Positions 2,116-34,612 of a stretch of DNA of 64,000 bases are shown here, piece after piece. The stretch is taken from IMG/VR virus record IMGVR_UViG_2693429713_000009; one strand, 5' to 3'. The translations under genes were made by a program, and so were the position numbers. This stretch comes from a virus. Taxonomy: Duplodnaviria; Heunggongvirae; Uroviricota; Caudoviricetes. The stretch's first letter is position 1. Each line of letters opens with the position of its first letter. A model generated the notes under the pieces. The model was not told the origin of the DNA and did no database searches. It saw only the letters and a list, made by a program, of their open reading frames with translations.

Positions 2116-4063
2116 CAATCCTTTACGAATTAATATTCAGTCTACTTTTGCTGATACGATCCCCGGCTATATGCCAAGTCGCTGGTCTTCAGAAGAATTA
2201 AGCGAAGATGACCTGATTTTTGAGGCGGCGACCTTAGAAGATATTGAGCTTGCCTATATGGGCAATGAAATTCTGGTTGTGTCTGACGAAGCTATGTTTG
2301 AGTCCATAACTACAACCAGAATTCGGTTAGCTCAAACAATGCGAGCTTTCGTCCGTGCGCTGAATCGTGGCCTGAATGGTACGAATATTATGGCAGGGAC
2401 TGATGAAGCTGGGACCGATGAAAATGGACGTAATTGTATTGGAGGTGCGATTATCGGTCGTGTACGTCGGGTAGCTAATATCCCTGTTTTGACCGCGCAG
2501 ATACCGCTTACTGACGGGCAGAGTACAAGCATAATTTTCCACTCTCCAACAGCTGACGGGGCAAAAATAAAGAGTAACGACGAGCTTGTTGCATTTCAGT
2601 TTTTACTTAATAAGCGTAACGTAACTCACGTTGTCGCCCCGATTGGTGGGAGAGATGTTTCTTTAAGCCAGGTATGCCAGGCGCTATCTAATTTGATTGA
2701 GCGTAACAGCGAAAAATTTAAGAAAGCAAAAGAGCGCCAGGACAAAATGAAGGCAGATATTGAGAGTTATCTCAATGAAGCAGATAAACTGGCAGAAGAA
2801 CGGTCAATAATGATTGATCAGGTGGACGTTGCGCAACGTGGGCTGACTGAAAAGCGTGCTGCTCTTACGGAGATGCAAAAAAAACTTGATGCCCAGAAAG
2901 CCATCAACGAGGAATTACAAGAAAAACGCGATAAATTGTTGTCTGCTAAAGGTGAAAAAACGAAGGAACGAGCGTTTAGTGACCAGCTGCGACATGTAAA
3001 ACATAATCTTGCCATTGACGGAAAAACAGTGCTGGATAATGGCGCTGAAGTTAATTATGTCACGTCCGGCAGTGACAATTTCGTTACGATAGTAGCACCT
3101 GAAGGTAAATTCAGTATTGATGCCAGTGCTGTCAAAGGAGGCAGTTTGGCAGATGCTGCAACCAAATTACTTAAAGCCTACCGAGAGCATAACGCAGATA
3201 AATATAAAGTTGATGTGTTACCAGGCCAGCAGGAAGACTCCGAACCACCACAGACAGACCCCGAGACGAACCCAGTATCACAATCAGAAAGCCAAGATGT
3301 AGGTAAATACCACTATGCACTTCAATCTCGCCCGGCTGGTGTTGGTGCTGTGCCGGATGGAAATAAAGCCGTGCTTGATCGTCCTGACCAGGCTGATCAG
3401 TATTACGAATATGCTCGTCACGGTATCATTACGTATGACCGTAAACTGACAGATGAAGAAGTCAGCCAGTACGAGTTGCTCTATCTTCCTGATGAAGATG
3501 AGCTGAAAGATTTTGCAGACCAATTGGTTGCGTCCAGCATGTCGAAACATATTGATGGCTATGTGGACCTGTTTGGCAGTGACCTGAAAACATTCAAGGC
3601 GCAAGTGAAAATTCTTTTCCGCAAAGCGTTTCCAAACGTGGCGTATCCACTTAGTGATGGGGAGAACCTTTTCATTATGGACGTGTATAACGCCCTTCAA
3701 AATCATTCAAGCGAAGTAAAAATAGAGCATATGGTTGAGCCAGAATCACAACCACAACCACAACCACAACCACAACCACAACCACAACTACAACCAGCAC
3801 CAGAACAGGAGCCAGAAGAAACGGGTGAATCAGCAAGTGAAGCTGATCAGGAGGCAGATAAAGCACTGGAGTACCTGAAATCCGTGCCGGAGCAGTTTAC
3901 ATCCCGCGATCTGACGGTCATCAGTGCTGAACTTGATCATGTGCAGGAAGCAGCAAACGCTCTAATCAGTGCAGGTCGATACGACGAGAACGAAGCCACT
4001 GTTGGTGAAGCAGTTGACTACCTGATCAACATTCTGGCTGAAATTCAGCAGGGAGGTGCTTAA
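2102..4063 (+). CDS. darA: DarA-like antirestriction / internal head protein
   Basis: About 650 aa, size and operon position as in P1 darA; internal PQ repeat; overlaps upstream gene. Confidence 0.45.
   Translation: MSMINNPLRINIQSTFADTIPGYMPSRWSSEELSEDDLIFEAATLEDIELAYMGNEILVVSDEAMFESITTTRIRLAQTMRAFVRALNRGLNGTNIMAGTDEAGTDENGRNCIGGAIIGRVRRVANIPVLTAQIPLTDGQSTSIIFHSPTADGAKIKSNDELVAFQFLLNKRNVTHVVAPIGGRDVSLSQVCQALSNLIERNSEKFKKAKERQDKMKADIESYLNEADKLAEERSIMIDQVDVAQRGLTEKRAALTEMQKKLDAQKAINEELQEKRDKLLSAKGEKTKERAFSDQLRHVKHNLAIDGKTVLDNGAEVNYVTSGSDNFVTIVAPEGKFSIDASAVKGGSLADAATKLLKAYREHNADKYKVDVLPGQQEDSEPPQTDPETNPVSQSESQDVGKYHYALQSRPAGVGAVPDGNKAVLDRPDQADQYYEYARHGIITYDRKLTDEEVSQYELLYLPDEDELKDFADQLVASSMSKHIDGYVDLFGSDLKTFKAQVKILFRKAFPNVAYPLSDGENLFIMDVYNALQNHSSEVKIEHMVEPESQPQPQPQPQPQPQLQPAPEQEPEETGESASEADQEADKALEYLKSVPEQFTSRDLTVISAELDHVQEAANALISAGRYDENEATVGEAVDYLINILAEIQQGGA
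3747..3792 (+). repeat. (CAACCA)n hexanucleotide microsatellite inside DarA-like CDS
   Basis: About seven tandem CAACCA units encoding QPQPQPQPQPQP. Confidence 0.7.
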
Positions 4064-9887: not shown

Positions 9888-9917
9888 TGTTAGAAAATTA
9901 ATTTGATGTTTCTAAAT
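9888..9917. promoter_or_regulatory. paired operator-like motifs TGTTAGAAAA-N11-TTTCTAAAT
   Basis: Inverted pair of the recurring motif upstream of the icd/antirepressor unit. Confidence 0.5.
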
Positions 9918-10019
9918 CGGAATGTATGATCTGCATCATCGACTGAAGTCATCCATTGCTGAAATTTTTAGTTGATCTTCCATGTTTTCAGGCTTATATT
10001 CATGCCGTCGTAGCAAATT

Positions 10020-10215
10020 CTGCGACCGGGTTTGACAGCCTGAATACTTACGCGGACAACCGCACATTTCCGATATTGCGGTATTTTTGTGTCCGTAAAA
10101 CCACGTTACGCCCGAATTATGGTGGGGCGTGATGGGGAGGCTTCGGCCTGCTGGTTTCGTAAGTGCCAGTCTGTCAACCCTGTCACGTCCTGCCACCTGT
10201 TTGACAGCGGGTCGC
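10020..10215 (+). ncRNA. candidate c4-like antisense RNA region
   Basis: Non-coding leader upstream of icd-like gene with direct repeats GTTTGACAGC (about 10029 and 10199) and complementary CTGTCAACCCTGTCAC (about 10172). Confidence 0.25.
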
Positions 10216-10246: not shown

Positions 10247-10471
10247 ATGGTTAATGCCAATCCTTGCTCACGCCCAGAATTCATCTGGCGTTTCCACTCC
10301 CTGCAAAAACACTGCGATCACTTCGCAATTGCCGCAACCGAAAAAGAAGCCCGTTCTCTGATCCCTGATCAGTATGGTGTTCTTACTGGTCGTTTCTCTA
10401 CTTCCCCACAACCAAACACTAATCCCTGGTATCGCAATATTACCAATCCCGGAATTGCGGAGGCACACTGA
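10247..10471 (+). CDS. Icd-like small protein
   Basis: 74 aa ORF ending in TGATG overlap with antirepressor start, as P1 icd-ant. Confidence 0.35.
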   Translation: MVNANPCSRPEFIWRFHSLQKHCDHFAIAATEKEARSLIPDQYGVLTGRFSTSPQPNTNPWYRNITNPGIAEAH

Positions 10472-11178
10472 TGGAAATCTGCATTCTTGAAAAGCCATCA
10501 ATGACCAGCATTGAGATCGCGGAGCTGGTGGGAAGTCGCCCGGATAACGTTAAACGCACTATTGAACGCTTGAGTAAATCAGGTGTTATTCCACTTCCTC
10601 CAATGGAGGTTTCCGAAAATATCAATAACTTAGGATTTAAAGTTAAAAATTCACACTACGTCTTCGAAGGCGAGCAAGGCAAGCGTGACAGTATCATTGT
10701 CGTTGCGCAGCTTTCTCCCGAATTTACCGCCCGGCTGGTGGACCGCTGGCGCGAACTGGAAGAACAAGTACGCCAGCCGTTGACCGAAATAGAGATGATC
10801 GCCGCAATGGCTGCAAATGCAGTTCAGCAGCAAAAGCGGCTTCATGTTGTTGAGTCAAAGGTTAGCCAGGTGGTAGAAACCGTCGAGCAAATCAAGAAGG
10901 GCAACATGCCAGATGGTTACATTGGCTACCGCCAGCTGGCTGCGAAATGTGGCCTGACCGAAGCCAAATGCCGCAACCTTGTCAACGCTTACCGGATTCC
11001 CACCGATACACATGAGTTTTTAACTCCAGAGGGGGTATTGTCGCGTCGTTCCATCGTGGCCTTATCTCCCTTCATGAATGCTTTTAACCGGATGATGTCG
11101 GAGGCTGAACACCGAGGAAAACGCTGGTATCACCCCAAAATGGGGCAATTCCAGGTGATCGGTTGGGGAGGTGAGTGA
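10471..11178 (+). CDS. antirepressor, Rha/Ant family
   Basis: 235 aa; N-terminal Rha-like regulatory domain. Confidence 0.5.
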   Translation: MEICILEKPSMTSIEIAELVGSRPDNVKRTIERLSKSGVIPLPPMEVSENINNLGFKVKNSHYVFEGEQGKRDSIIVVAQLSPEFTARLVDRWRELEEQVRQPLTEIEMIAAMAANAVQQQKRLHVVESKVSQVVETVEQIKKGNMPDGYIGYRQLAAKCGLTEAKCRNLVNAYRIPTDTHEFLTPEGVLSRRSIVALSPFMNAFNRMMSEAEHRGKRWYHPKMGQFQVIGWGGE

Positions 11179-11375
11179 TGGACATCATGCAGGCGGTAAA
11201 AAAAATCAGGGAAGGACAGGCTGAAGTGTGCCGCCGTAAAGCATGGAGTGTTGGTGTATGGGCCTGGCCTGATAATTACTCTACTACCGGATGGTTTTGT
11301 ATTAATGGACTCCAGATCCGGGAAGTTGATTTATCGACGGCTGATATAGTCGGTAATGATTGGATCGTGACTTGA
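11175..11375 (+). CDS. DUF2829-like small protein
   Basis: 66 aa; REGQAEVCRRKAWSVGVWAW and C-terminal DWIV resemble DUF2829/Tad2 signature; ATGA overlap with upstream gene. Confidence 0.35.
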   Translation: MMDIMQAVKKIREGQAEVCRRKAWSVGVWAWPDNYSTTGWFCINGLQIREVDLSTADIVGNDWIVT

Positions 11376-11383
11376 AGCGTGAT

Positions 11384-11408
11384 GCCCCGGCCTGGCCGGG
11401 GCTTTTTT
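11384..11408 (+). terminator. intrinsic terminator
   Basis: GCCCCGGCC-T-GGCCGGGGC then TTTTTT. Confidence 0.6.
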
Positions 11409-11893
11409 CATGCCTCATTAGTTGAGGTTGCTGCGTCTCCGACTGGTAACAGAGCGGTATTGCGTGGTTCGCCAGCAGGCCAGCGATAGCCAGACACTCT
11501 TGATGTTGGGAATGCGCGAATATTAACCGCATCCCCCTGGTTCCCACCCAGGACAAGCAGATCGCCATTGGCGCGGCGTCCGACAACGAAGCCTACGTGC
11601 CCACCGCCTACGCGGGTAAATACAACGATACATCCGTATGCCGGTGTATCTAATTTCTCGCCCCAATCCAGATAGGATTTTGCCGACTCAAATCTTGTTG
11701 AGCGGATGCCTACACGTTCCAGCATTGCACCGACAAATGCTGCGCACCACGGCGTTTCATCGTCTTTAATTCCGCCGCGCTTGATGTCGCGCCAGAACTG
11801 AACGATTTCAGGGTTGTGTTTAGCGCCTTTTATTTCAGTCAGGCCAATGTGCTTACGGGCTTCAATTAGCCAGCGAGGTTCAATGTTTGCCAT
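11408..11893 (-). CDS. CHAP/NlpC-P60-like cell wall peptidase
   Basis: 161 aa; catalytic-like Cys in TPWCAAFVG and His in GGHVGFVVG. Confidence 0.5.
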   Translation of the reverse strand: MANIEPRWLIEARKHIGLTEIKGAKHNPEIVQFWRDIKRGGIKDDETPWCAAFVGAMLERVGIRSTRFESAKSYLDWGEKLDTPAYGCIVVFTRVGGGHVGFVVGRRANGDLLVLGGNQGDAVNIRAFPTSRVSGYRWPAGEPRNTALLPVGDAATSTNEA

Positions 11894-20260: not shown

Positions 20261-20461
20261 TTGCGTTTACTTAACGTGGCAGAACTTATCCCTGCAGGAA
20301 CTAATGCTATCGCTCGTCGTCGCTCATGGCAGCAGGCTCTATGTATTGAGATCTCGAAACGTATCAATGGAAGTTTTGAAGCTCACAATATTGTTACTGG
20401 CGATAAGGTTCACATAACCCCGGAAAGTGCAAGCGCTGATGATTGGGAGTTTGTACATTGA
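20261..20461 (+). CDS. hypothetical protein
   Basis: 66 aa ORF. Confidence 0.3.
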   Translation: MRLLNVAELIPAGTNAIARRRSWQQALCIEISKRINGSFEAHNIVTGDKVHITPESASADDWEFVH

Positions 20462-23314: not shown

Positions 23315-23391
23315 GGTGGTGTAGCTCAGTAGGATAGAGCAGCAGCCTTCTAAGCTGTCGGTCGGTGGTTCGAATCCACCCACCATCGCCA
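23315..23391 (+). tRNA. tRNA-Arg (anticodon TCT)
   Basis: Cloverleaf by eye: acceptor GGTGGTG/CACCATC, D arm GCTC..GAGC, anticodon loop CTTCTAA, T arm GGTGG-TTCGAAT-CCACC, encoded CCA. Confidence 0.75.
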
Positions 23392-23396
23392 ATTTA

Positions 23397-23483
23397 GGGG
23401 AGTTAGTCCGTAGGGGTAGCGGGGTAGACTGTAAATCTACTGTCATTGCGACTCGGATGGTTCGACTCCATCACTCCCCACCA
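23397..23483 (+). tRNA. tRNA-Tyr (anticodon GTA), long variable arm
   Basis: Acceptor GGGGAGT/ACTCCCC, anticodon stem-loop GTAGA-CTGTAAA-TCTAC, variable arm TGTCATTGCGACTCG, T arm GATGG-TTCGACT-CCATC, CCA. Confidence 0.65.
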
Positions 23484-23487
23484 AATT

Positions 23488-23563
23488 GCCGGTTTTGCTC
23501 AGTTGGTAGAGCGCCTGCCTTGTAAGCAGGATGTCAGCGGTTCGAGTCCGTTAACCGGCACCA
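23488..23563 (+). tRNA. tRNA-Thr (anticodon TGT)
   Basis: Acceptor GCCGGTT/AACCGGC, D arm GCTCAGTTGGTAGAGC, anticodon loop CTTGTAA, T loop TTCGAGT, CCA. Confidence 0.8.
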
Positions 23564-24811: not shown

Positions 24812-25211
24812 CACCGCAATCTAATAAAGTTTCAAGCAATGGAGTTTTTGTTGTCAGACTTCAGATATAGATGGTTGTGGAAGGAGAGCCTGTGCATAGT
24901 GCAGTTATTTCTTCCGCTATTTGTCTGCTTTTTCATGCTTCCTGAGCTGAAATACGCAATTTCAGACACTTTAAGCACTATCGTTACTTTTGTGTTTTAT
25001 CTTTACTTTGATTACTTATTGAGCACTAAAATCAATGAATTATCCGAGGAAATGCAAGGTGGCTGTAAGTGATGAATTTTTGGGCGTTTGCCGATAAGAA
25101 CCCTGGTTGGACATTTTTATTTTTGCTGGTGGTTGCATATGGGGTCGAGCAAGCGGCAAAAGCCTTACGCGGTTCTGGCAAAAAGCGTAAGCGGAATTAA
25201 CAGTAATCTGG

Positions 25212-25287
25212 CCCTTTAGCTCAGTGGTTAGAGCAGGCGACTCATAATCGCACGGTCACCGGTTCAAATCCGGTAGGGGCCACCATA
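25212..25287 (+). tRNA. tRNA-Ile2 (anticodon CAT, lysidine type)
   Basis: Near-identical by recall to E. coli ileX: GGCCCTTTAGCTCAGTGGTTAGAGCAGGCGACTCATAATCGC...TTCAAATCC...GGGGCCACCA. Confidence 0.75.
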
Positions 25288-25739: not shown

Positions 25740-26315
25740 ATGTTAATGGCGAACGATAACGCATATGCAGAAGAAGATCTCATTTTGAGTGACTTCATAG
25801 GGAAGCGGGAACGCTGGACCCAAAAGCGAGAGGAACTTTACGCCTCATTAGTTCGCAAAGGCGTCAATATCGAAACCGCACAGAGCGGCGATATGACAGT
25901 GGTAAGCGTTGGATTGCACGGTGTAAGCGTGTCAGCAATCAATCATGAGCCATACGTTGCGTTATCCGAGTCAATGGTAAGGTTAGTTAAGTTCCTGAAG
26001 TACACAGAAGCGAATAATGTAATCATTGGCAAAAAGAATATCCCTTTTTCCTCGGCTTTTTACTGGATGATGAAAGGGCTTGATGCCCGGCGGACATCAT
26101 GGCCTAAAGGGAGCTATATATCGATGTTCCGTGGCAGCATTGGCAGCAAAGAAAAGCTCTTCGAATTCTTGCCGGAAGAGGCATTCGATATTGTGGAAGG
26201 GTGCGATGTGATGGTGATGCCTCGCCTGGTAATGATGAATGGGGATTTACAGGCGCAGACAGACTGGTTTGCAACTGGTGTGGATATTATCGCGACTGAC
26301 TGGGAGGCTTTCTGA
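25740..26315 (+). CDS. hypothetical protein with DUF2829-like region
   Basis: 191 aa; SSAFYWMMKGLDARRTSWPKGSYISMF and C-terminal ATDWEAF resemble DUF2829. Confidence 0.4.
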   Translation: MLMANDNAYAEEDLILSDFIGKRERWTQKREELYASLVRKGVNIETAQSGDMTVVSVGLHGVSVSAINHEPYVALSESMVRLVKFLKYTEANNVIIGKKNIPFSSAFYWMMKGLDARRTSWPKGSYISMFRGSIGSKEKLFEFLPEEAFDIVEGCDVMVMPRLVMMNGDLQAQTDWFATGVDIIATDWEAF

Positions 26316-33961: not shown

Positions 33962-34612
33962 ATGAATTACATGGCAACGAAAGAGCTTTTTAAGTTCCTT
34001 CCCAAATACAAAGCTCACAAAAACGTTAGTGCATCGAAAATCAAAAATGTTGTTATTTTCGGAGTAACTGATGCCCCACTTTGGGGCTGCATTGAACTCG
34101 TTGAACCAAAAGGGGCAACAGTTTGTGTTGACGCAATATTTTTACAAAAACACCGACCAAAAACTGGCGGGTATCTGATCGTTTATGAAAACGGTTATCT
34201 GTTCTATGCCCCGGAGAAACCATTTGAGGAATGCTATGGCCTGGTTAACGACGCCTCCGAAAATGGAACCACGGTCATCATTACGGATGACAACGGCGTG
34301 ATGATTAATATTACCGGGAGCGTAACTATTTCTGCTGGTGGTACCACTACCCAGCAAGAGGAAATCGACCTTGAAGCAGCCGACTTTTCTGATGCGCTAA
34401 TGTGGCTGAAAGAAGGAAAAAATGTAGCTCGACGCGAGTGGAAAGGCGAAAAGCAATTCTGCTGGTTAGTTCTCGCTGGGAGCGTCAATTTACACGACAT
34501 TCAGGTTCCTTATGGTGACCATTTCGTATTGAAAGATGCACAAAATATGGACAGCGTTTGGTTGCCGTCTGTTGATGATTTACTGGCTTGTGACTGGTTT
34601 GTAGTGGAGTGA
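33962..34612 (+). CDS. two-domain protein with C-terminal DUF2829 (Tad2-like) domain
   Basis: 216 aa; C-terminal FSDALMWLKEGKNVARREWKGEKQFCWLV...ACDWFVVE. Confidence 0.5.
   Translation: MNYMATKELFKFLPKYKAHKNVSASKIKNVVIFGVTDAPLWGCIELVEPKGATVCVDAIFLQKHRPKTGGYLIVYENGYLFYAPEKPFEECYGLVNDASENGTTVIITDDNGVMINITGSVTISAGGTTTQQEEIDLEAADFSDALMWLKEGKNVARREWKGEKQFCWLVLAGSVNLHDIQVPYGDHFVLKDAQNMDSVWLPSVDDLLACDWFVVE

Follow-up and report, generated by a model that had tools for sequence, protein, structure and literature searches.

In the immI operon of phages P1 and P7 (c4-icd-ant1/ant2), the antisense RNA C4 blocks expression of the cistrons located downstream of it. To our knowledge, the only role described to date for proteins of the Tad2 (DUF2829) type is that of free sponges that take up bacterial immune nucleotides, and no link between DUF2829 and antirepressors was found in the literature. 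Here we describe orf17, a small gene in a 64,000-nucleotide stretch of DNA from a tailed phage (IMG/VR record IMGVR_UViG_2693429713_000009; the whole stretch is called the window below), in which these two systems meet. It is a true protein-coding gene, placed last among the coupled cistrons of an immI operon in a D6-like phage-plasmid. Judging from alignments and a structural model, its product belongs to the Tad2-like fold as a distant member of reduced length, and it is the separate-chain counterpart of the C-terminal domain of a 313-amino-acid Ant paralogue.

Position of orf17 in a P1-type immI operon

Over the region compared, the surroundings of orf17 match Escherichia phage D6 at 99.3% identity and the 92-kb Salmonella plasmid NZ_CP028198 at 100%, and they are carried by about 110 plasmids of E. 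coli, Salmonella and Shigella, nearly all of them typed as non-mobilizable. This assigns the window to a D6-like phage-plasmid related to P1. The gene itself is 99-100% identical to copies annotated as coding sequences in D6 (orf17, YP_009914694) and in Salmonella and E. coli plasmids (WP_001344836 in RefSeq), both labelled 'hypothetical protein' and both given an ATG start. In PHROGs it belongs to a family of its own, phrog_7385, whose function is unassigned there.

The succession of a1/b1 target sites, C4, an icd-like gene, ant, orf17 and a terminator (Table 1) places orf17 as the last cistron of a P1-type immI operon. As in P1 and P7, C4 with its a1/b1 sites precedes an icd-like first cistron and coupled downstream cistrons, the icd stop overlapping the ant ATG as TGATG, the same form as the ant/orf17 junction. 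C4 occurs in a single copy in the window, and the regulatory logic of the operon is that of P1 immI; given the C4 block, the immI products would be made mainly before C4 accumulates or once immunity is lifted. At the DNA level, c4-icd is 84-88% identical to P1, the similarity ending at query base 159, early in icd. Unlike in P1, the gene after icd is of the Rha/Roi type, with no similarity to P1 in the DNA-level comparison, an extra fourth cistron, orf17, is present, and D6-like elements often carry two such operons. The Rha/Roi-type 'Ant' matches Pfam HTH_24 (31.3 bits) and Phage_pRha (26.4 bits), as well as phrog_63, 'anti-repressor Ant' (1.4e-47).

Table 1. Coordinates of the immI operon, its neighbours and the canonical Tad2-domain genes in the window
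Feature	Position	Strand	Description
a1/b1 target sites of C4 antisense RNA	9994..10046	+	start of immI transcript; Rfam RF03163 c4-a1b1, 55.9 bits (gathering score 46.7)
C4 antisense RNA	10115..10200	+	Rfam RF01695, 69.6 bits (gathering score 45), full model length; negative regulator of downstream cistrons
icd-like gene, 74 amino acids	10247..10471	+	first cistron after C4; annotated 'host cell division inhibitor Icd-like' in D6 and plasmids
Rha/Roi-type 'Ant', 235 amino acids	10471..11178	+	N-terminal winged-helix/pRha domain, coiled segment, conserved C-terminal part
Shine-Dalgarno box GGAGG	11167..11171	+	inside ant 3' end, 6 nucleotides 5' of ATG 11178; read from sequence
orf17, 65 amino acids (ATG start)	11178..11375	+	last cistron of immI operon; predicted minimal, divergent Tad2-like (DUF2829-superfamily) protein
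Intrinsic terminator	11384..11408	+	end of immI operon; all-GC 8-bp stem, 3-nucleotide loop, TTTTTT; from terminator scan
CHAP/TIGR02594 peptidoglycan-hydrolase-like gene	11408-11893	-	convergent on immI terminator
DarB-like methyltransferase/helicase, 2278 amino acids	12045-18881	+	beyond CHAP gene, 0.7 kb from orf17
191-amino-acid protein	25740..26315	+	canonical C-terminal Tad2-like domain, residues 103-190; PF11195 39.1 bits
216-amino-acid protein	33962..34612	+	canonical C-terminal Tad2-like domain; PF11195 64.6 bits

An earlier note on this DNA, made from the sequence alone, had reported an open reading frame of 66 codons overlapping the antirepressor stop as ATGA. The frame is present (11175..11375 on the + strand, GTG start), with an in-frame TGA directly 5' of it (11172-11174). 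The ATG at 11178 is the likely start, as RefSeq uses ATG both for D6 orf17 and for WP_001344836 and as the GGAGG box is better spaced for it. Coupling to ant is also real, although the form of the overlap is not ATGA: the junction reads GTGATGG, and the ant stop (TGA, 11176-11178) shares one base with the ATG (TGATG), or four with the GTG (GTGA). The GGAGG box, the TGATG overlap, the start and stop of orf17 and the hairpin that follows are shared by 10 of 10 related loci. The terminator begins 9 nucleotides beyond the orf17 stop, and its stem is kept across related plasmids, only the loop being different. Translation of orf17 is thus probable from its Shine-Dalgarno box, its coupling and the protein-level conservation of its homologues.

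A programmed -1 frameshift joining Ant and Orf17 was also considered; it is ruled out for the window by the TGA at 11172-11174, which closes the orf17 frame before the GTG. In a divergent haplotype (L013, L014, L035-L037, L039 and L072-L074), T11172 is replaced by C, the stop becomes CGA and the orf17 frame is open for 88 codons back into the ant 3' end.

orf17 encodes a minimal Tad2-like protein

Resemblance of orf17 to DUF2829 had been suggested in the earlier note from the strings REGQAEVCRRKAWSVGVWAW and DWIV, both of which are in the translation. The Pfam family PF11195 ('Tad2-like', formerly DUF2829; curated gathering threshold 25 bits) scores 15.2 bits against orf17 (E 0.032), below the threshold, with residues 1-64 aligned onto profile positions 1-72 of 73. 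BLASTP of orf17 against the two canonical DUF2829 proteins of the window was not significant (E 0.2-1.1). An exhaustive HMMER search with orf17 over 1.84 billion representatives recovered a family made up of P0005 (313 amino acids, the last 64 of which are 45% identical to orf17) and the stand-alone proteins P0006 and P0007 (68 and 96 amino acids). Of these relatives, P0007 reaches 23.9 bits against PF11195 (E 6e-5) and P0006 14 bits. One further match of this search, P0004 (825 amino acids), is spurious, being a PKD-repeat protein that shares a short DNxxTTGWF string.

Comparison of profiles gave a full-length match. A 7-sequence profile of the orf17 family was aligned by hhalign to a 10-sequence DUF2829 profile (the two window domains, ModTad2, SPO1 Tad2 and E. 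coli/Salmonella homologues) with a probability of 87.7% and an E-value of 3.4e-6 over 65 colinear columns. In a control run with the option -M first, the real score was 30.6, a value reached by none of 200 column shuffles (mean 10.1, standard deviation 2.2, maximum 18), and the reversed profile scored 10. Searches of PDB sequences returned nothing with orf17 alone, and with a four-sequence family profile only chance matches (E at least 0.3), none of them to Tad2.

A single-sequence AlphaFold2 model of orf17 reached a predicted local distance difference test score (pLDDT) of 60.7, and a Foldseek search with it returned only noise. Modelled from an alignment of the family only, with no canonical Tad2 included, orf17 (pLDDT 72.4) has a helix at residues 3-11, strands at 17-20, 27-31, 39-43 and 46-50, a helix at 54-57 and a strand at 61-64. 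These elements form alpha1, a five-stranded antiparallel sheet beta1-beta5 and a short alpha3 between beta4 and beta5, which is the order of elements in SPO1 Tad2 (10.1101/2023.05.01.538930) minus alpha2 of the beta2-beta3 loop. Also shared with Tad2 proteins (SPO1 gp34.65, ModTad2 and HgmTad2, the latter identical with AcrIIA7) are a G turn after alpha1, an R in beta1, a W in the beta1-beta2 loop, a D in alpha3 and a C-terminal D-W-x-V. Like them, orf17 is a small phage-encoded protein, and canonical members occur in its own genome. In contrast to their approximately 85-105 amino acids it has 65, lacking the insertion between beta2 and beta3, and it falls under C4 RNA control and is fused to a Rha-type regulator in paralogues.

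The DUF2829-like assignment is thus supported by the profile match and its shuffle control, by P0007 as an intermediate and by the modelled topology, even if the Pfam search by itself stayed below its cutoff. Placing orf17 in the Tad2-like fold, without the beta2-beta3 insertion, is solid, although the relationship is remote. The proposal of three DUF2829-like domains in the element also holds, orf17 being the remote third beside the two canonical ones, both of which sit outside immI. The domain of the 216-amino-acid protein alone matches ModTad2 (9eib, 7e-11), SPO1 Tad2 (8sme, 6e-7) and AcrIIA7. Four transfer RNA genes in two clusters (23315-23560 and 25210-25282, + strand) lie just upstream of the gene for the 191-amino-acid protein.

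A candidate fourth minimal Tad2-like open reading frame (66 amino acids, TTG start, 20261-20461, + strand) lies just downstream of a VRR-NUC gene. It contains '...AGTNAIARRRSW...' and a C-terminal 'DDWEFV', and the orf17-family profile hidden Markov model aligns to it over its full length (E 0.0028 among the 977 open reading frames), with no Pfam or NCBIfam match. Its hhalign score of 20 compares with 9.9 +/- 2.1 for shuffles (maximum 15.7), with a probability of only 16%. The assignment is suggestive, not established.

NCBIfam has no family for orf17, P0007 or this candidate. No member of the orf17 family was found outside enterobacterial phage-plasmids among the searches made, including a pattern scan of GTDB, which gave only spurious matches (one long frame in each of two alphaproteobacterial metagenome-assembled genomes, a GC-rich frame). 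The orf17 family is tiny and enterobacterial.

Fusion to Ant and association with C4

The fused relative P0005 consists of an Ant part (65% identical to the window Ant over 237 residues), a proline-rich linker and the orf17-like domain in one polypeptide. It corresponds to D6 orf82, the 'Ant' of a second c4-icd-ant locus located next to ref, and is thus encoded in the same gene order as in the window. This second immI-like region of D6 was noted earlier, without remark on the orf17-like domain (PMC6799933). It occurs at L059 2554-3710 (phage D6 74022-75178) and also in L006, L040-L050 and L077-L084, with an orf82-type Ant of 309-314 amino acids. Most D6-like plasmids carry both loci, NZ_CP028198 has only the split one, and the window contains one C4 and no fused Ant-orf17 copy.

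In a third arrangement, found in a Raoultella plasmid (L003) and in L004, a1/b1 and C4 are present, P0007 or P0006 starts 45-53 nucleotides further on, and a terminator comes immediately after it. Neither icd nor ant is present, the small gene taking the slot of icd, and the neighbours are phage genes. The position of the terminator right after the small gene indicates that P0006 and P0007 are the sole C4-controlled products of these loci. P0006 and P0007 share no more than 38% identity, indicating that the solo arrangement is old.

In a census that took in every locus retrieved from IMG/VR, metagenomes, plasmids and assemblies, the module was recovered as 33 split, 22 fused, 6 frameshifted-fused and 3 solo copies. 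Where enough upstream sequence was available, all copies have a C4 upstream on the same strand, the exceptions being four remnants flanked by insertion sequences or integrases; a further match without C4 (L086) is weak, partial and probably spurious. The distance from C4 to the module is 967-1006 nucleotides where icd and ant lie between, and 54-112 nucleotides in solo copies. Since L020 encodes an Ant orthologue (72% identical, 235 amino acids) with no orf17 after it, all four combinations are found: Ant alone, module alone, split and fused.

Two side observations concern these architectures. L020 (E. coli plasmid CP088875, 393 kb) carries two tandem C4 RNAs (2843-2930 and 3499-3586) after its Ant orthologue, the first of them inside an annotated 'ash family' coding sequence. 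In L053, L054, L055-L057 and L085, which are D6-like contigs from IMG/VR and metagenomes, the fused ant is frameshifted and the Tad2-like domain is open from an internal Met; these domains correspond to P0009-P0012 (83-98 amino acids). Frameshifted fused ants may result from faulty assembly or be pseudogenes, or they may be independent routes by which the module came to stand alone.

A possible role in the anti-immunity arm of the switch

Taken together, these arrangements lead us to a tentative reading of orf17 as a binding module in the anti-immunity arm of the immunity switch and not as an ordinary sponge for 3' cyclic ADP-ribose (3'cADPR). This reading is preferred because the association with C4 persists through saturated divergence, because the canonical Tad2 genes of the same genome lie outside immI, and because an in-frame fusion with a DNA-binding regulator, kept under strong constraint, suggests a function in common. 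The Orf17 product would be made at approximately 1:1 with Ant, and only after the control by C4 (presumably also by C1) has gone, which would be the case directly after infection and upon induction. Here the module would act with Ant, and in L003 and L004, where it is the sole C4-controlled gene, on its own. As for its partner, we infer association with a protein (a repressor or Ant) or binding of a nucleotide ligand that modulates the switch, the two being about equally likely.

Several points weigh against such a role. The antirepressor activity of the Rha-type 'Ant' is a matter of annotation only. The modules are separable, Ant occurring without orf17 (L020) and the module without Ant (L003, L004), which fits an independent function equally well. 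The census loci are closely related, leaving only about four independent architectures. The split copy is near-neutral and may be under relaxed constraint. We know of no Tad2-family member that binds a repressor. Finally, every characterised member of the family is a small-molecule sponge (10.1101/2023.05.01.538930; 10.1101/2023.11.15.567273; 10.1101/2025.08.24.671296).

Among small phage proteins that counteract immunity, the 69-amino-acid C1 inactivator Coi of P1 resembles orf17 in size and, under the hypothesis of an anti-immunity role only, by functional analogy. Its gene, unlike orf17, lies in immC and not in immI. A sequence relationship between the two was rejected (hhalign probability 0.1%).

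Pocket residues and an anti-defence sponge

A somewhat less probable explanation, and one that we regard as rather unlikely, is that orf17 is an ordinary anti-defence sponge with shifted ligand specificity, which would oligomerise and sequester an immune nucleotide such as a cyclic ADP-ribose (cADPR) isomer, histidine-ADP-ribose (His-ADPR) or a cyclic mono- or dinucleotide. Its location in immI would then serve only to provide a burst of expression right after infection and silencing by C4 in the lysogen. The remote but full-length Tad2 homology and the fold match speak for this explanation, as do the occurrence of the module both with and without Ant and the uniformity of the known Tad2 biochemistry. 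The neighbourhood is also suitable, since the darB-like gene lies close by and DarB is an anti-restriction protein in P1, so that immI adjoins known anti-defence cargo.

The residues of the pocket give a mixed picture. In SPO1 Tad2, glycocyclic ADP-ribose (gcADPR) is contacted by W25, N26, W73, S76, T78 and D79, and mutation of the equivalent residues in HgmTad2 markedly lowers binding (10.1101/2023.05.01.538930; 10.1101/2023.11.15.567273). When mapped onto orf17 through the merged hhalign alignment, W25 and D79 correspond to W23 and D56, both invariant in the family, and S76 to S53 (S or A in the family). The equivalents of the other three are not conserved: N26 corresponds to S24 (S or P), W73 to V50 (V, I, F or Y) and T78 to A55 (A, E or N). 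About three of the six gcADPR contacts thus survive, and the full set of contact residues of Tad2 sponges is not present. The family has, instead, invariants of its own (C18, R19, R20, W28 and P31), of which C18, R19, R20 and W28 would be of the Arg/Trp type common in nucleotide pockets. Also missing from both the alignment and the model is the insertion of about 20 residues between beta2 and beta3, with alpha2, that provides SPO1 Tad2 with its dimer interface and HgmTad2 with its site for cyclic dinucleotides (10.1101/2023.05.01.538930; 10.1101/2023.11.15.567273).

The changed contacts and the missing insertion make a classical 3'cADPR sponge unlikely, and 'DUF2829-like' should not be equated here with 'Thoeris sponge', as about half of the known ligand-contact residues are altered. 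Another ligand may be bound, since tested Tad2 homologues bind widely differing nucleotides (10.1101/2025.08.24.671296; 10.1101/2023.11.15.567273). Against a free sponge stand the failure of the family profile to recover Tad2 from the PDB, the persistence of the tie to C4 through saturated divergence, and the in-frame fusion to a DNA-binding regulator, which would not be expected. In addition, judging from the model, the variable positions of the split copy (see below) probably lie in loops whose counterparts in Tad2 make up the ligand pocket.

Selection on fused and split copies

Constraint was assessed by the ratio of nonsynonymous to synonymous change (pN/pS). Among 14 fused alleles it is 0.27 for the Ant part, 0.19 for the linker and 0.13 for the Tad2-like domain, indicative of strong purifying selection on the fused domain. 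In contrast, the 16 alleles of split orf17 from 41 intact copies are near-neutral (0.95; 7 synonymous and 25 nonsynonymous segregating changes), with a pairwise ratio of 0.73 among related loci, so that no frame-specific constraint is visible among close alleles; the neighbouring ant of the same loci has 0.29 (0.27-0.29 over two comparisons). Between the divergent haplotype and the window, the ratio is about 0.07 for Ant residues 151-235 and 0.4-0.7 for orf17. On the deep branches that separate the window, fused, L003 and L004 sequences, pS is saturated (0.73-0.91) while pN is 0.39-0.54, which identifies the orf17-type domain as a real, constrained protein.

Replacements in the split copy are recurrent and multi-state at A29 (V or I), Y34 (C or S) and L45 (C or Y, by two-base changes), and I57 changes to A. 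The changes at these four codons travel with the divergent haplotype that also alters the Ant C-terminus. Some split alleles alter family-invariant residues (G13E, R19C and G26D). The pattern may reflect either relaxed constraint or diversifying selection.

These values raise the possibility, which we hold to be improbable, that orf17 is what is left of a gene fission and is decaying: a frameshift or linker deletion would have cut the C-terminal domain off an ancestral fused Ant, and the domain would still be translated by coupling but would have lost its importance in this lineage. Such an origin would account for the contrast of the split copy with both the adjacent Ant C-terminus and the fused domain, for alleles changed at invariant residues, for rare truncated or frameshifted variants (P0002, P0003, P0008 and L038) and for the presence of the fused paralogue in most D6-like plasmids. 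However, 41 of 42 split copies are intact and have kept their start, stop, Shine-Dalgarno box and terminator; the commonest allele, that of the window, is identical in about half of the loci; and elements such as the window and NZ_CP028198 appear to have the split copy only. The lack of stop codons is uninformative either way, as no more than 32 changes segregate.

Less probable still, and in our view quite doubtful, is a variant in which the Tad2-like module would act as a sensor that, tethered to the Rha-type Ant or made together with it, binds an immune second messenger of the cADPR or cyclic-nucleotide type. That orf17 is an untranslated chance frame whose resemblance to DUF2829 is coincidental is very unlikely: it is short, in a window with 977 stop-to-stop frames of at least 35 codons (so that length alone is no proof), its Pfam score is below threshold and its close alleles show no frame-specific constraint, but its homologues, 31-45% identical in four gene architectures with saturated synonymous sites, the constraint on the same domain when fused, the Shine-Dalgarno box with coupled ATG, the presence in about 110 plasmids and the terminator next to the stop are above chance.

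Variation among the Ant proteins of D6-like plasmids is mostly N-terminal, with 17-61 replacements in residues 1-105 (window 10471-10790) versus 0-5 in residues 151-235. The DNA-binding part of Ant looks mosaic and exchangeable, as far as these alignments go.

The leader of the operon

Upstream of the operon, where P1 has its promoter P51 under control of C1 through the operator Op51, only generic matches to sigma-70-like promoters occur (9903-9930 and 9972-10000), no search aimed at an operator having been made. The Rfam isrK model matches the a1/b1 leader at 10007-10088 (+ strand) with 46.5 bits, just below its gathering score, and the equivalent position of the second immI locus (L006, L020 and L040-L058) with 55-63 bits. 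isrK is an Hfq-binding small RNA of Salmonella prophage islands, and the overlap of the models suggests that the isrK and immI leader families may be the same kind of element.

Significance

The analysis reveals a minimal, insertion-less branch of Tad2-like proteins that has been missed by curated models, the gene being left unnamed by Pfam, NCBIfam and genome annotations. Even its deeply diverged members stay linked to the C4 switch of P1/D6-type phage-plasmids, whether as a cistron of their own, as an Ant-fused domain or as the sole C4-controlled gene. If the module acted as a sensor, an alarm of abortive infection would be coupled to the anti-immunity arm, allowing the phage-plasmid to escape or to alter its lysis-lysogeny decision, and the fused 313-amino-acid protein would be a one-component regulator derived from a phage sponge fold. 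If orf17 binds a nucleotide, the range of ligands and architectures of phage sponges would be wider and immI operons would carry anti-defence cargo. If it binds a repressor or Ant, it would be the first case in which a Tad2 fold has been put to use in the lysis-lysogeny decision. In both cases, a 'hypothetical protein' of about 110 sequenced E. coli, Salmonella and Shigella plasmids gains a name and a hypothesis that can be tested, and many of the elements that carry it circulate in clinical and food-animal isolates.

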